Shown: one piece after another, positions 341-63,543 of the stretch
How the letters are laid out: each line of letters begins with the position of its first letter
Position numbering within the stretch: position 1 is the first letter of the stretch
Source of the DNA: Octopus vulgaris
Taxonomy: Eukaryota
Reading direction: 5' to 3'
Assembly: GCA_951406725.2 (NCBI GenBank)
Contig: OX597814.1
Span: 225,308,001 to 225,372,000 of the forward strand
Length of the DNA stretch: 64,000 nt
The notes under the pieces: model-generated
What the model was told of the DNA's origin: nothing
What the model saw: only the letters and a program-made list of their open reading frames with translations
The model's database searches: none
Translations under genes and position numbers: made by a program

Positions 341-3070
341 TTTGGTATTGGCAACATGAATGACAATGGTCAGAGACTACTAGAATTTTGCACATACCAT
401 AACCTGTGCATCACTAACACATTATTTGCCAACAAGACATCCCATAAGGAATCTTGGAGACATCCAAGATCTCACCACTGGCATCAGCTGGATCTCATCA
501 TTACACGAAGACCCTTTCTAAATTCTGTTCAACTGACTCGTAGTTACCACAGCGCGAATTGTGACACAGATCATTCACTAATAAGAAGCAGGGTGAGGAT
601 TCTGCCTAAAAAGTCCATCACTTCAAGAAAATGGGCCGATCACGCATTAAAACTGCCAGAACCTCTGACCCTATACTGAGAAAATGTTTTGCTGTTTCTA
701 TCAAAGTTGCCCTCAGTAGCTGCCCAACCACCCCTGCTGAAAGTAGATGAAATTATATCAGGGAAGCTTTGTATACCACATCAATAGATACTTTCGGCAT
801 GAGAGAAAGGCAAAACCCAGATTTTGTTCAGTGCTGGGCTCTCAGAGCTGGAAACAGATATCGAAACAAAGCGTGCAGCTCTGATGTAACACAAGAGTGA
901 TTCTTCTATTAAGTCACTCGAAGAACTCAGAAAGGCAAGAAATAAAACTCAACTGACTGCCAGACGCTGTGCAAATAGGTATTGGCAGGAAATATGTCAG
1001 AGTATCCAGTCAGCTGCTGACAATGGCGACACCCGTGGGATGTATGCCGGTTTGAAGAAGGCCCTCGGTCCATCCGCAACCAAGTCAGCCCCTCTGAAAT
1101 CAACTACTGAGGATCTCATCAAGGACCAAAGCAAGTAAATAGATAGATGGGTGGAGTACTACCAGGATCTCTACTCACAAGAGACCACTGTAGCTGAGGC
1201 TGCAATCGAGAGTGTCAAGATCTTGCCAGTCATGTGTGAACTTGACAGTCTGCCATCTATAGCAGAGCTCACCAAGGCTATTGACTCCCTAGCAAGTAAC
1301 AAGCTTCCGGGAAAAGACGGCATCCCCTTAGAGATCATCAAAACCGGCAAAAACACCATCCTGCTTCGGCACCTTCATGAGCTTGTGTGTCAGTGCTGGG
1401 AAGAAGGTACAGTCCCTCAGGATATGCGGGATGCTAACATCATTACGCTTTATAAAAACAAAGGTGACCGTGGTGATTGTAACAATTACCGTGGAATATC
1501 TCTTCTAAGCACTGTTGGAAAGGCCTCTGCTCGCATTATCCTGTCCAAGCTGCAACTGCTTGCTTCTCGAATTTATCCAGAATCGTAGTGTGGCTTTAGA
1601 AGAAGCAGATCAACTATTGACATAATGTTCTCCATACGCCAACTTCAGGAGAAGTCCAGAGAGCAGAAAATGCCATTATATATGGCCTTCATTGATCTGA
1701 CAAAGGCCTTTGACTTGGTAAGTAGAAAAGGCCTCTTCATCCTGCTCCAAAACATCGGATGTCCACCAAAGCTGCTGAGGATCATCACATCTTTCCATGA
1801 TGATATGCAAGGCACCATACAGCACAATGGTTCAACATCAGCCGCCTTCCAAATAAAAAATGGGGTAAAGCTAGGTTGTGTCCTTGCTCCTACAGTATTT
1901 GGCATCTTCTCGCTACTGCTGTCACATGCCTTTCAGACATCAGATGATGGAGTGTTTCTGCACAGTAGAAGTGATGGGAAACTGTTCAATCTCTCGCGTT
2001 TGCGTGCCAAGACTAAAATCAGAAGCGTCCTGATCAAGGAGGTGATATTTGCTGATGCTGCTGCTCTGGTATCACACACAGAAGAAGCCCTACAAAGGCT
2101 CATCAACTGTTTTGAGCAAGCATGTGGCAACTTTGGCTTATTTATCAGCCTCAAGAAGACCAACATCATGAGTCAGGCTACATCGACCATCCCAAACATA
2201 CATATTGGAGACCACAGACTACAGGAGGTGGAGAAGTTTACCTATCTTGGCACTACCGTCACCTACAACCTATCCCTTGATACTGAGCTCAATATACGCA
2301 CTGGCAAGGCAGCTGCTGTGATGGCCCAACTCTCCAGACGGGCATTGGACAACAATAAACTGACCAAGACCACAAAAATGAAGATTTACCAGGCATGTGT
2401 ACTTAGCACTCTACTATATGGAAGTGAGACTTGGACGCCATACACACGGCATACGACGCCATACGTTGCCTAAATATCTTTCACCTGCGCTGCCTCCGGA
2501 AAATCCTTCGCATCAAATGGCAGAATCATGTCCCCAACAAAGATGTCCTCAAGCAAGCATGAATACCAAGCATGTTTACACTCCTCACACAAAGACGTAT
2601 GAGATGGCTTCGACATGTTAGCAGTATGGAAGATGGCAGAATCCCCAAGGACATACTCAACGGAGAGCTTGCTAGGGGCACTAGGTCTGTGGGAAGACCG
2701 TTCTTACGATACAAGGATGTTTGCGAAAGGGACATGAATGCCTGCAACATCAATATTACCAACTGGGAAGCAGTTGCCAGCAACCGTGGAGATTGGCGAC
2801 GTACCGTAAAAGAGGGAACACAAAGGAGTGACATAGAGGGAGAGGAGAAATGGAAAGACAAGAAAAGAGGTCAACAAGAAACTGTGACATTACAACTAGA
2901 CAGACAAAGTCTTCGCTACATTTGCGGCACCTGCCAGAGGGAGTGTTTGTGCAGGATAGGACTACACAGCCACAACAGGAGATGTATTAGGACATGAAAT
3001 GTAAAAGCCGGACTAGATTATTTTATGCGCAACTCCATTGTCTCCCGAGACAAAAAGGATGCCAACACCA
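341..3070 (+). mobile_element. RTE-clade non-LTR retrotransposon, 5'-truncated and decayed (APE endonuclease C-half + RT + C2H2 tail)
   Basis: ORF pieces carry RTE motifs: [82 protein letters not shown] and C-terminal CGTC..IGLHSH. Stops and frameshifts lie between pieces. The 3' end is ccattgtctcccgagaca...gatgccaacacca. Confidence 0.93.
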
Positions 3071-9607: not shown

Positions 9608-10005
9608 TATATATATATACACACACACTCTCTCTCTCACACACACACATATATTTCTCTTCCCTATGTGCATTTCTGTTAATATGCACATGCACATATT
9701 GAAGTTTGTGTCAGTGTGCATCTTTAAATATTCATGATTAATGCTACATGTAGAAAAATAAAATAAAACTAACTTGTCTATTGCACAGTAGAAAGATTAT
9801 GCATTATGCAGATAATTCAATATATTTTATAAACGACAGGAAATTTCGATTTCGATTGGGTTCAGTAATTCAATCTATGAAGACATTCGTCTCTTTTCTG
9901 TCTGTAAACAGTCTTTAGCTCTTGATAAATAAGTCCTAGTTATGTGGGAATCAAATGGAAATGCTTGTAAGCCATTCAAGAACACACAAAAACCGTTAGT
10001 TTCAC

Positions 10006-10169
10006 GGCGCTACTTAAATACAGAGGTATCTACGGAACGATATAAAGGGGAGGGTTAGTTAGGGTTCGGGTGTCATTACACGTCAACGCAGCGTACATTT
10101 AAACTGTTTTGTACGTAACACTTGTATTTAAGTCGTACCGTTAAGGGACCCCTTTATTTAAGTATTGCC
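10006..10169. mobile_element. 164-bp MITE with 15-bp TIRs and 8-bp TSD (Merlin- or hAT-like)
   Basis: TIRs GGCGCTACTTAAATA / TATTTAAGTATTGCC. TSD agtttcac at 9998-10005 and 10170-10177. The paralogous repeat near 53850 lacks the insert. Confidence 0.8.
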
Positions 10170-10197
10170 AGTTTCACTTCAACATTAAAATTTCATT

Positions 10198-10248
10198 TCT
10201 GTCAAAATAGTTTCGTCGCTTTGAAACCGCGACCTGTTCACTGACAAA
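10198..10248 (-). ncRNA. Hammerhead-ribozyme-like motif, type I, G3-C8 core variant (copy 1)
   Basis: Minus strand reads TTTGTCA GTGAACA G GTCGC ggtttcaaa GCGAC GAAA CTAT TT TGACAGA. Confidence 0.55.
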
Positions 10249-11226
10249 GTATCACAAAAGTGATGCCTTTCATTTGTGTGAATGTGTATATATGTGTGTA
10301 CGCGAGTGCGTATTAGTGTGAGTGTGTGTGTGTGTCACTGTTGAAGTCGCTAGTGCCACTTGTTTGTACATATATTGGCTTAGTGGTACAGAGTGCTTGG
10401 AAACTGTATAAGGTGCAAGTTTCGAGTACTTGTCGGTAACTTTTTTCTCCTCGTCTTCTTATAGTAATTAGCCAACTCTCTAGGTTCTTCTCACAGCTAT
10501 CTCGCGTTCAAAAATTATATGGGTATTTAAAAAAAAATTTCCTTCAATAAATACATTACGTATACATTAATAGAATAAACTGTCAGTTTTCCAAATAGCG
10601 AATTAAAACTTAAAATAGAAAGTAAGAGACTTTGAAAACGAGAGACTTTGCAAATGGAATACTCCACAGTGAATGCAATGAATGTTAAAATTAGTGAAGA
10701 GTTGGACGCATCTTTAAATTTGATAGAAATTGGAGCTAAATATTTCAATAAACTTGGGAAATCGAAATTATAGGAAATTTCTTGGCTGATGAATTTCTAA
10801 AAAATATTTCCAGACGGTCGACCCTTTAATAGTTTCTTTTTCTCTTTAGCATTTTTAGAAATTCTTACATACCTAATTAATAAGCAACTTTCTCCATTAT
10901 AGCATATATATATATATGTTCGGCTAAAGGTGGTGCTCCAGCATGGCCGCAGCCGCAGTCAAATGACTGAAACAAGTAAAAGAATAAAAGAATATTGTTT
11001 ATGCTCGGTTTGGTGAATTACCGTGACTGATCTGTCCCCGTATTTTCTGCTTTACAAGTCGGTGCTGTTTATCGTGTAAACATGTGGTGGGGACATTCAA
11101 ACAACCTTATTATCTTTCCATTTGCTGCATTTTACATGGAATCTTTAATCCTCCAAAGTCGTTTTGGCTGCAAATTTTGGAAGTGTGCCGGAAAAATGCG
11201 GTATTTCATTTTACTTTTCCCATACA

Positions 11227-53876: not shown

Positions 53877-53927
53877 TTTGTCAAAATATTTTCGTCGCTA
53901 TAAGACCGCGACCTGTTCACTGACAAA
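53877..53927 (-). ncRNA. Hammerhead-ribozyme-like motif, type I, G3-C8 core variant (copy 2)
   Basis: Minus strand reads TTTGTCA GTGAACA G GTCGC ggtcttata GCGAC GAAA ATAT TT TGACAAA, with a perfect 7-bp stem I, 5-bp stem II and palindromic AATATT stem III. Confidence 0.62.
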
Positions 53928-53948
53928 AATCCGTCCAAACATCCGTTG

Positions 53949-54001
<53 letters not shown>

Positions 54002-56412: not shown

Positions 56413-57307
56413 CGTGGTCTGATCAATACGTTTCCGGACTGTTGCCATAGTAACAAAGCTAAAGTACACAGAGTGAAGAAAACACTTGACACAAACTGAC
56501 CTTGAACTCCACTGTGCATGCGCATTACGTTTTATCGTTCTATCTCACTTCCGCTGTTTACAGCAGTACTTCGAAGGAAGGTGTGTAGCGTGTGATCATC
56601 GCATTGACCATGACAGAGAAAGGTATGCAGAGAATCTGCATCAAATTTTGCCAAAGGCTTGGCAATACCTGCTCACAGACCTACGCAAAGTGCAAAGTTT
56701 TCAAAAAGTTTTCATCGTTCTCGATGCAATTAAGATCTTGTGCAACTGAAACCCGCGTGTCGTTTTGGTGAGCTGAAAGCAGTTTGGGCACAAATTTAGC
56801 AGACACGCGTCTCAGATCCAAATCTTTATTGATAATTGACTGAATTCAACCGTAACTGATCTTCACATCCTCTGATAACTCGCGGACGGTGAATCGACGA
56901 TTTTCTCTCACAGCTGCACGCAGATCTGCAATGTTTTTCTCAGTTCTGCTGGTTGCGGGACTCCCAGAATGTTCGTCACTATCGACATTCTTCGGTCCAC
57001 CTTGTAAACGTCTGAAACACTTGTGTGCGACTCATACAATCTTCCCCATACACTTTCTACAACTTTGCGAAGGCTTTTGAGCAGGTATCGCCATGACAAC
57101 TTTGTCTGTCGGGGTCAGTGCAGCGATCGCACGCTACACACCTTCCTTCCAAACACTGCTGTAAAAAGCGGAAAAAAAACTAGCACGTTAAAACTCAGTG
57201 CGCATGCATAGCAGAGTTCAATGTCAATTTGTACCTAGTGGCTTCACTCTGCGTACTTTAACTACGTTACTATGGCAACAGACCAGATACTTATTGATCA
57301 GACCTCG
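56413..57307. mobile_element. Mariner derivative made of two inverted left ends
   Basis: TIRs cg(t/a)ggtctgatcaata. The plus strand encodes MTEKGMQRICIKFCQRLG. The minus strand encodes SGSPATSRT..VRENRRFTVREL..DLDLRRVSAKFVPKLLS. The 5' leader is present in both arms. Confidence 0.88.
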
Positions 57308-57309
57308 TA

Positions 57310-57378
<69 letters not shown>

Positions 57379-57380
<2 letters not shown>

Positions 57381-58980
57381 GCCGTCCACCAGCGCCTCCG
57401 TCGTGGGACGCTGGACCGACGGCCCGGTTGAGTTGCTCGGGGTCTGGTTTGGTCCGGACCTCCAAGTGGAGAAGAACTGGAACGAGATAACGAGTAGGGT
57501 GGTCACTCTCGCCCGGCAATGGGCCGAGAGGAAACTGTCCCTAAAAGGTCGGGCGGAGGTGGCGAACACGTACATCGCGTCCGTCATCTACTACCGCCTG
57601 ACCGTCGTACCCTGTCCCGACCCTACCATCACCAAACTACAACGCATTCTCTTTCGCTTCTTGTGGAAAGGATGCGTCCCGATGGTCAGGCGATCCATTT
57701 CCTGTCAACACCCGTTAAAAGGAGGGCTGGGCATGCCGTGGTTGATGATGCGCAGACACGCGCTGAGACTGCGACATCTCTGGCTCTATGTAGACGACGG
57801 TGAACAGGTGTGGTCGCCGTTTGTGAGGCACGCTTTCCCGCAGCTCGTCTACATGACCGAACTGCAGTCGTGGATCAAAAAGAGGCCGAAGAAGGGCGAA
57901 TGGCACCGCGAGTGTCGCGTTGCTCTCAAGGTCAACCTTGAGTGACTTCAACACAACCAAAGCATTCTAGAGGGGTTTAGTGGAGGGGAGGTACGACGAC
58001 GAGCTCGGGGCGAACCGGGACGTCGACGAGGAGTACCTGACCCGCCTGTTCAGGACGACTTTCGGGCCAGGGCCCCTGGACAACTTCCAGAGATCCCTGG
58101 CCTGGCAGTGCTACCGAGAAGCGCTACCCGTTCGGGATAAGCTCTACAGACACGGCTCGAGAAACACGGGGCCGACCTGCCCGATATGCGGTCAGAGCGA
58201 CGAAACCGTTCTGCACGCACTCGTGCAGTGTCCAACAATTTCCGACCTGTGGGCTTGTGTCGAACAACTGCTGTCACGTGTGGGACGAGTCGGTTTATCA
58301 GCTGAGTCTATCGTCAATATTGTCACGCCTCCCTCCTTCAAACGGGAAGGAAGAGCTATTTTCATCATCCTTGTGGCTATGGCGAAAGAATGTATCTGGT
58401 GGACGCGTCTGAAAGGATTGGAGACAAACACTTTCCTCTCTGGTCAATCTCTCATCAACTTCTTCAAGTACCACTTGAAAAGGAAAGTGAGAGTAGAGAG
58501 GCAAGTTTTGTCTAGCGAATGTTTTAAAAAAGATGGGTGAATGTAGCAAGAATGGCACGTATGAATGACGAAGCCACCTTGAGCATGATCATATGAACCC
58601 AGAAATTGAAAACAGAGAGTTGCTTATTCGAAAAAAAAAAAAAAAAAAAAAAAAGAAATATAACATGTGACCCCATTGACCGAGGTTACCGTGATCTTTT
58701 CCGTAGGCTTTTCTTTCCACGGGTAAACCTCACCTGTCCTCCCCTTTACACTTCATATTGACATTTCTGTGATAACGATCCCTGTTGATCAATTCTTTTT
58801 TTTTTTTTCCTCTCCCCCTTTTTTTTAACCCCCTTTTTTTGTCCTCTTTCTCCCTTTTTACGATCCCTTTTGATCGAAACTCCCCCTTTCTTTTTTTTTT
58901 TTTTTTTAAACCTTCAAAAGAAAAGCTCTACCTTGTAATTTGTTCTATCTGTGTGCAGCCCTGTGTGGCTAATAAAGAAA
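57379..58980 (+). mobile_element. Second Tx1 copy, 5'-truncated and disrupted, embedded in (TATC)n
   Basis: Protein nearly identical to the C-terminal ORF2 of 19937-23314, with a short deletion near 57930 and a stop near 57968. (TATC)n lies at 57309-57380 and 58983-59008. Confidence 0.95.
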
Positions 58981-62961: not shown

Positions 62962-63543
62962 CTTTTCTACTCTAGGCATAAGTCTCGAAATTATTTGGGA
63001 GGGGCTAGTCGATTAGATTGTCCCCAGTACGCGACTGGTACTTAATTTATCGACCTCGAAGGGATGAAAGGCAAAGTCGACCTCGGCGGAATTTGAACTC
63101 AGAACGTAAAGACAGACGAAATACCTATTTCCTCACTACCCACAAGGGGCTAAACACAAAGAGGACAAACAAGAACAGACAAACGGATTAAGTCGATTAT
63201 ATTGACCCCAGTGCGTAACTGGTACTTATTTAATCGACCCCGAAAGGAGGAAAGGCAAAGTCTTCCACGGCGGAAGTTGAACGCAGAACGTAACGGCAGA
63301 CGAAATACCTATTTCTTTACTATCCACAACGGGCTTAACAAAGAAGAGACAAACAAGGACAGACAAACGGATTAAGTCGATTATATTGACCCCAGTGCGT
63401 AACTGGTACTTATTTAATCGACCCCGAGAGGATGAAAGGCAAAGTCGACCTCGGCGGAATATTAACTCAGAACGTAGCGGGAGACGAAAATACCGCTAAG
63501 CATTTTGTCCGGTGTGCTAACGTTTCTGCCAGCTCGCCGCCTT
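62962..63543 (-). mobile_element. Composite SINE family B: one head and three tandem bodies, 17-bp TSD
   Basis: TSD aatggtac(a/c)agattatt at 62945-62961 and 63544-63560. ~180-bp units are joined at gacgaaatacc|tatttc (about 63126 and 63309). Confidence 0.88.

Follow-up and report, generated by a model that had tools for sequence, protein, structure and literature searches.

Does a hammerhead ribozyme with its core base pair reversed occur in nature? The pair between C3 and G8 has been established by structure and by engineered swaps, and the natural variation known at these positions comprises U3-A8 and U3·G8 only. The question is raised by a stretch of 64,000 nucleotides of the Octopus vulgaris genome (contig OX597814.1, positions 225,308,001 to 225,372,000), here called the window. 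Two sequences on its minus strand, at 53877-53927 (copy 1) and 10198-10248 (copy 2), read just as a preliminary description had given them, as hammerheads with the core GUGAACA instead of CUGANGA, i.e. with G3-C8. We have examined the two copies, the element that carries them and its relatives in the genome.

The two copies in the window and their element

Copy 1 (53877-53927, minus strand) is a minimal hammerhead of type I: stems I and II flank the core in a three-way junction, and helix III is short and palindromic, as had been proposed. Stem I pairs 53927-53921 with 53883-53877. The core G3 U4 G5 A6 A7 C8 A9 (GUGAACA) occupies 53914-53920 on the minus strand, with G3 = 53920 and C8 = 53915, and is followed at 53913 by an unpaired extra G. 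The latter is typical of Penelope-like elements (PLEs), where the hammerheads of the pseudo-LTR (pLTR) are of minimal type I with a nucleotide separating residues 9 and 10.1 (Cervera and De la Peña 2014, PMC4209133). Stem II (GUCGC/GCGAC, including G10.1-C11.1) and its variable loop II lie at 53894-53912, the arms being 53912-53908 and 53898-53894. There follow G12 A13 A14 (53893-53891), the palindromic helix III strand AAUAUU (53890-53885) and U17 (53884), and from hammerhead numbering the cut is predicted at 53884/53883, again on the minus strand. The hammerhead residues U4 G5 A6, A9, G12 A13 A14, A15.1-U16.1 and H17 are all present. The literal C3 and G8 of CUGANGA are absent; a base pair between positions 3 and 8 is present. 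The cleavage triplets had been read as UUU and AUU, but both copies have UUU once the register is chosen so that stem I stays intact.

Copy 2 belongs to an older subfamily and spans 9962-10250 (minus strand), with its hammerhead at 10248-10198, G3 = 10241 and C8 = 10236. The palindrome of its helix III is broken (ACUAUU), and it contains a 164-bp MITE-like insertion (10006-10169, minus strand) with an 8-bp target duplication and imperfect terminal inverted repeats. In a descriptor scan with four alternative cores the only GUGANCA matches in the window were copies 1 and 2. One long-looped match to CUGANGA at 52579 (plus strand) is probably due to chance. At E values as high as 10 Rfam still reported no hammerhead at the motif and returned four weak unrelated matches, as expected if CUGANGA-based searches miss the motif. 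Over the whole window, microsatellites matched miRNA models among the 150 of 223 Rfam matches listed.

The repeat around copy 1 had been placed at 53735-53950, with a length of about 215 bp. Its homology runs from 53934 to 53736 (minus strand), and the unit is about 207 nt long from the inferred start site (see below), copy 1 being without the first few nucleotides past that site. Copy 1 is a solo pLTR with tail, 95% identical to either end of a full unit (locus L176), and it lies between two microsatellites that are likely the target site, (TA)n on its 5' side (53950-53999) and TA/CA on its 3' side (53546-53733). In the tail (53736-53805, minus strand) 3' ends are preferred at two places, near 53796-53805 and near 53736. 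The first 31 codons of the element ORF fall at 53735-53827 (minus strand, ATG at 53827), and in loci L127 and L130 they continue into the ORF.

The ORF has a YVDD motif and open stretches of up to 1,025 aa. There is a GIY-YIG domain at its C-terminus (PF01541, 23.1 bits with a cutoff of 22.6), and CQSNCAVC in the ORF corresponds to the CX2-5CxxC linker between RT and EN. Pfam RVT_1 did not match the element protein; its homologues are named RT-domain proteins. The hammerhead lies about 1.1 kb downstream of the RT-GIY-YIG ORF, and L176 is a whole unit with two same-strand G3-C8 hammerheads (positions 1242 and 5503) separated by 4,261 bp, the reading frame being broken in L176 and in L177. The ORF link and the two-hammerhead unit bear out the suggested association with Penelope, and the repeat has the pLTR and tail layout of a PLE. 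Neptune PLEs have an RT, a CX2-5CxxC linker, a C-terminal GIY-YIG, microsatellite targets, inverted 5'-truncated copies and a tail (Craig et al. 2021, PMC8557442). Linker, GIY-YIG, microsatellite targets, inverted truncated copies and tail are common to the present element; we call it Neptune-type from this description of linker and targets, the linker motif being the same in Nematis (PMC8557442).

All eight young-ORF loci fetched (89-95% to the query) have G3-C8, so the family has spread with the swap. Of three older ORF loci, one retains G3-C8, another has lost 2 nt at this place and the third is without the repeat. Other canonical C3-G8 minimal hammerheads, from unrelated PLE families, are found in the flanks of L049, L106, L111, L131, L292 and L311.

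Elsewhere the window contains, at 23326-19940 (minus), 1589-2470 (plus), 57298-57942 (plus), 31524-31333 (minus) and 54841-54668 (minus), what we take to be a 1,129-aa LINE-like ORF, RT fragments and two Penelope-type protein fragments. It also holds a 2-kb (TATG)n array (45918-47901) and a 184-bp tandem unit of a SINE-like repeat (63007-63494).

The reversed pair in family A and its sister families

We searched the genome (2.8 Gb, 227 contigs) using an 18-mer that spans stem I, core and stem II. The G3-C8 version has 6,616 exact matches, while the reversed controls have none, and the motif is therefore no product of chance. What had been taken for a two-copy family is one of thousands, to which both copies belong; we term it family A. 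The C3-G8 version of the 18-mer has eight matches, which fall in sister families C and D (six and two, respectively) with related downstream sequence. Most family A copies are about 207 nt long and located in (TA)n, and at 17 of 30 loci there is an inverted partial twin within 300 nt, often just upstream. Further 5' sequence, through a fixed 25-mer, is included in 486 copies. Non-LTR retrozymes are non-coding tandem repeats of 150-400 nt with a hammerhead in each. Family A copies are instead dispersed solos that end inside the ORF, and they do not fit this definition. Short tandem pLTR arrays with TA spacers occur at a few loci only (L142 and L143 on C28, L321-L325 on C2). These arrays are retrozyme-like in layout, and the L142 copies shown are G3·G8.

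The search for relatives in JGI metagenomes gave one weak match among 35 stretches. A read with G3-C8 was also seen in a sequencing run under a second organism label. In the repeat, CpGs decay two- to fourfold faster than the remaining sites, which suggests methylation of family A copies.

Conservation within family A was analysed in 89 copies anchored upstream of the ribozyme, of which 86 were aligned, with the first 95 columns usable. The proposed fixation holds across these genome-wide copies: G3 is present in 81/86 and C8 in 81/86, with no C3 and a single G8. Of the 47 unstructured columns, which cover leader, loop II and downstream sequence, 10 show changes at the level of subfamilies (counted by hand, CpG decay aside); of 28 columns of core, stem II and helix III none does (Fisher p = 0.011, a soft test in that the loop columns are non-independent and stem I was set aside). 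The common stem I change A1.3G (9/84 copies) retains a U·G pair.

Single mutants are nevertheless present in numbers, 442 copies genome-wide being non-C at position 8 and 194 non-G at position 3. The combination G3·G8 makes up 29 of the first 100 non-C8 rows listed, corresponding to about 128 copies, and C3·C8 makes up 10 of 100 non-G3 rows listed, or about 19 copies. We considered a spreading G3·G8 intermediate lineage and found no support for it. The 29 loci fall in several subfamilies, and one has an inverted twin retaining C8, so that these copies look like products of decay. The C8-to-G changes, more numerous than those of G3 to C, are scattered over subfamilies.

The core was then compared with those of the sister families, where homologous C3-G8 relatives were found. 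Family B (54% identity over 814 aa) has CUGAUGC at the same place in 7/7 loci, i.e. C3-G8 with A9C. In the young family B copies (L114-L119 and L125; for example L114:6382-6441, plus strand) A9C is a second unusual core, and the open stretches of this family, which include a long insert rich in Asn, reach 1,312 aa. The cores of families C and E are CUGAAGA and CUGAUGA. The old family D has C3-G8 or U3·G8 and stems near-identical to those of family A; among the copies seen (L276-L282, L032, L033, L258, L259 and L261) U3·G8 outnumbers C3-G8, and one is U3-A8. There is no ORF within 1.5 kb of families C and D, and their PLE status is therefore assigned through pLTR homology. Position 17 is U in families B, D and E and mostly C in family C.

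Sixteen chosen copies from the five families were aligned. The 3-8 pair is formed in 16/16 rows (CG 7, GC 6, UG 2 and UA 1). Of all cells 88.9% are paired, a value reached in 0/500 shuffles, with slid controls at 26-51%; the rows are related and hand-picked, so these figures carry no probability. Positions 3 and 8 are the only ones at which family A departs from the core consensus, and the two substitutions complement each other. Judged from these comparisons, the G3-C8 swap is derived, reciprocal and fixed in family A, an indication that the active fold is under selection. By a rough count, two random core changes would yield a complementary 3/8 swap about 0.6% of the time (1/55 x 1/3). Given that the only two core changes are in the bases that pair, and are complementary, drift does not explain them.

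Ends of the copies and the predicted cut

The 3' ends of 234 matches cluster at reference positions 187-199 and 249-254, about 60 nt apart. By analogy with the Anolis element PAc (PMC11167929), these two preferred ends are likely two internal start sites of reverse transcription.

The 5' ends of family A cluster at AGATGCAGC. At 37 junctions with non-element sequence upstream, the base before AGATGCAGC is G in 24, where the template has C (binomial p = 4e-10); L003, L020, L039 and L057 are examples of such extra-G junctions. Reverse transcriptases copy the cap as an extra G. Our literature search found nothing on a cap-copied extra G for PLEs. We infer that a capped transcript starts at the A of AGATGCAGC, about 23 nt before G3, making this the pLTR start site. 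Counting that A as +1, G3 would be at +24, the cut after +59, the ATG at +116 and the RT starts at +147 and +207. The hammerhead is complete in most copies, frequently together with the extra 5' G, which suggests that their templates were capped, uncut RNA. The sharp 5' end was also considered as the 3' end of an intron, with a branch-like CTAAC, pyrimidines and CAG. This was rejected, since a junction G where the template has C fits a cap-derived G. No splice-type joint ending at the sharp 5' end was found in the contigs of four runs; these runs, which we guess to be RNA, have contigs covering pLTR and ORF, and such contigs cannot show ends or expression.

Folding of the 207-nt unit of L101 gave predicted pair probabilities of 0.69-1.0 for stem I and 1.0 for stem II. 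Helix III would form only between two molecules, and the AAUAUU self-duplex is very weak at -0.2 kcal/mol. If the RNA is cut, some copies might begin at the cut. We inspected junctions at N1.1 in 30 loci of the 133 with a non-T before N1.1, and found 11 clean insertion starts, five loci joined via stem I self-homology and 14 point mutants. The control at +8 had one clean junction in 30 loci of 166 (p = 0.002 compared with N1.1). The tenfold enrichment in 5' breaks that this implied did not survive an unbiased scan, in which +8 proved to be a low bin and the excess about twofold. For that scan the first 100 of 460 matches were listed and 78 rows scored by hand, the other 22 being set aside as 5-nt deletions, old-subfamily inserts, hairpin twins or unclear. 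Of 15 positions compared, the predicted cut holds the largest number of 5' breaks, 11 of the 78 listed rows scored, and the mean at its 14 neighbours among the rows listed is 4.8 (Poisson p = 0.01). Removing four stem-homology cases leaves 7 against 4.8 (p = 0.21, rows listed). In 20 rows that were fetched again, most junctions at neighbouring positions were real. These data are suggestive at best of a genomic footprint of the predicted cleavage.

Is the swapped hammerhead a ribozyme?

We consider it probable that the motif is the pLTR hammerhead of a Neptune-type PLE with G3-C8 throughout the family, and that it would cleave itself slowly after U17, as a dimer or with the element protein. The weak intermolecular helix III favours such slow, gated behaviour, as does the published behaviour of PLE hammerheads and engineered mutants. 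The former are proposed to act as dimers and cleave poorly in vitro (PMC4209133). In the Anolis Poseidon element PAc, the hammerhead needs its protein, and insertion in vitro is unaffected by hammerhead mutants (Frangieh et al. 2024, PMC11167929); in the available part of that report, no RNA reads end at the cut. Activity of PAc is abolished by C3G or G8C and partly restored by both together (PMC11167929). Elsewhere the rate falls about 1e5-fold with G8C and recovers in part when C3G is added (PMC8495972). The rescue by C3G/G8C that had been invoked for the present motif thus stands in that some activity is regained, but it is only partial (PMC11167929, PMC8495972). The C3-G8 pair is present in the tertiary-stabilised structure and absent from crystals of the minimal form (PMC3884650), and a kept 3-8 pair therefore points to the active conformation. 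Several points count against the cleavage reading: the very weak helix III duplex, the uncut templates, the pile-up of 5' breaks that loses significance without the stem-homology cases, and the behaviour of the PAc mutants on insertion in vitro (PMC11167929). A reciprocal swap also has to pass through an unpaired intermediate, which shows that a dead or weak ribozyme can be tolerated by the lineage, and family B has A9C in 7/7 loci.

Could the fold be retained while cleavage is negligible? The structure might serve as a binding site for the PLE protein, or as a 5'-UTR structure between cap and ATG, with the 3-8 pair kept for shape. The uncut templates and the weak pile-up of 5' breaks at the cut site would agree with this, as would the indifference of PAc insertion in vitro to hammerhead mutants (PMC11167929) and the poor cutting of PLE hammerheads in vitro (PMC4209133). 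Yet the 3-8 pair is part of the active conformation (PMC3884650), G5, A6, G12-A14 and A15.1-U16.1 are retained along with it, and an engineered G3-C8 hammerhead does cleave (PMC11167929). On this evidence we regard a fold without appreciable cleavage as unlikely.

A neutral relic, in which the role has been lost, both bases have drifted and a successful master element has carried the variant along, seems to us decidedly improbable. Copies do decay neutrally after insertion, as the 442 non-C8 and 194 non-G3 copies testify, and their high identity reflects recent amplification rather than selection. Against such a relic, the only core changes are two paired bases that remain complementary, and several subfamilies have altered loop and leader but never core or stem II. 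The G3·G8 rows (29 of 100 listed) are spread over subfamilies, in the manner of decay rather than of a spreading lineage. The remaining idea, a chance look-alike within a repeat, could appeal to the absence of a hammerhead match in Rfam. It is refuted by the position of the motif at the usual place of a PLE hammerhead, where it can be aligned to canonical sister hammerheads, and we give it practically no credence.

Returning to the favoured reading of a slow pLTR ribozyme, we put forward a fuller version more tentatively, as a possibility that falls somewhat short of an even chance. Family A would hold the first natural working G3-C8 hammerhead, its lineage having crossed an inactive intermediate and fixed the reversed pair in a U17 background, with a protein- or dimer-gated cut so slow that capped RNA would usually be reverse-transcribed before cleavage. 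The remaining steps belong to the favoured, more probable reading itself. There U17 may have made the exchange easier, since a C at position 17, the more usual base, could mispair with G3. Among PLE hammerheads in print U17 is common (PMC4209133 supplement), and engineered G3-C8 is stated to be more active with G17 than with C17 (PMC3884650; the data are not given there). The capped RNA would begin at the A some 23 nt ahead of G3 and would carry the hammerhead from +24 to +59, its ATG being at +116. Helix III would be built by two hammerheads joined via AAUAUU, and the G3-C8 pair would position the 2'-OH of residue 8 just as C3-G8 does. Cleavage would either detach a capped 59-nt leader or release an RNA of unit length. 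The element RT would start at +147 and +207 and copy back to the cap, which would give the thousands of solo copies, and no cut would be needed for a copy to insert.

The 2017 collection of Lünse et al. reportedly holds about 150,000 PLE variants. A natural G3-C8 pair was not found in the hammerhead literature searched, where it is engineered only; Lünse et al. 2017, Przybilski and Hammann 2007, and Martick and Scott 2006 fall outside that scope and could list it. It was likewise not found in the available parts of PMC6765202, PMC6155905, PMC2837043, PMC10085705 and bioRxiv 10.64898/2026.07.22.740005. The 11 text supplements of PMC3088659 contain no G3C8, C3G, G8C or GUGA string, and a term search of the text of the PMC4209133 supplement gave nine GUGA strings, none of them a core.

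The more than 6,600 G3-C8 copies beside C3-G8 sisters, with the same stems and a different core pair, would be the natural covariation that was missing. That a lineage regains a lost pair argues that the active fold is selected, although insertion uses uncut RNA, and this bears on the open question of the role of hammerheads for PLEs. In practical terms, search descriptors need a free 3-8 pair. If the reading is correct, CUGANGA-based surveys miss entire hammerhead families, and some PLE clades scored as hammerhead-less may hide G3-C8 cores.

Of the known systems, the PLE hammerheads of PMC4209133 resemble family A in being of type I with an extra nucleotide, G10.1-C11.1, a palindromic helix III and a pLTR location, and in occurring mostly as solo copies and inverted pairs, with U17 common. 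They differ in the core, which is G3-C8 in family A, U3-A8 (Schistosoma) in the text of that paper, and C3-G8, U3-A8 and one U3·G8 in its supplement. The natural core variants of Perreault et al. 2011 (PMC3088659) share with family A a covariation of residues 3 and 8, but in the available text it is described as U3-A8 only, not G3-C8. PAc has, like family A, a hammerhead beside the ORF start, AT-rich targets and an uncut RNA template, and two internal RT starts in the 5' end of its ORF give a tail (PMC11167929). It belongs to the Penelope/Poseidon clade and is naturally C3-G8, G3-C8 being engineered there (PMC11167929). It differs further in its ATG, which precedes the cut in PAc and lies 57 nt after it in family A, and we also list the spacing of about 60 nt between the two 3' ends of family A as a difference from PAc (PMC11167929).
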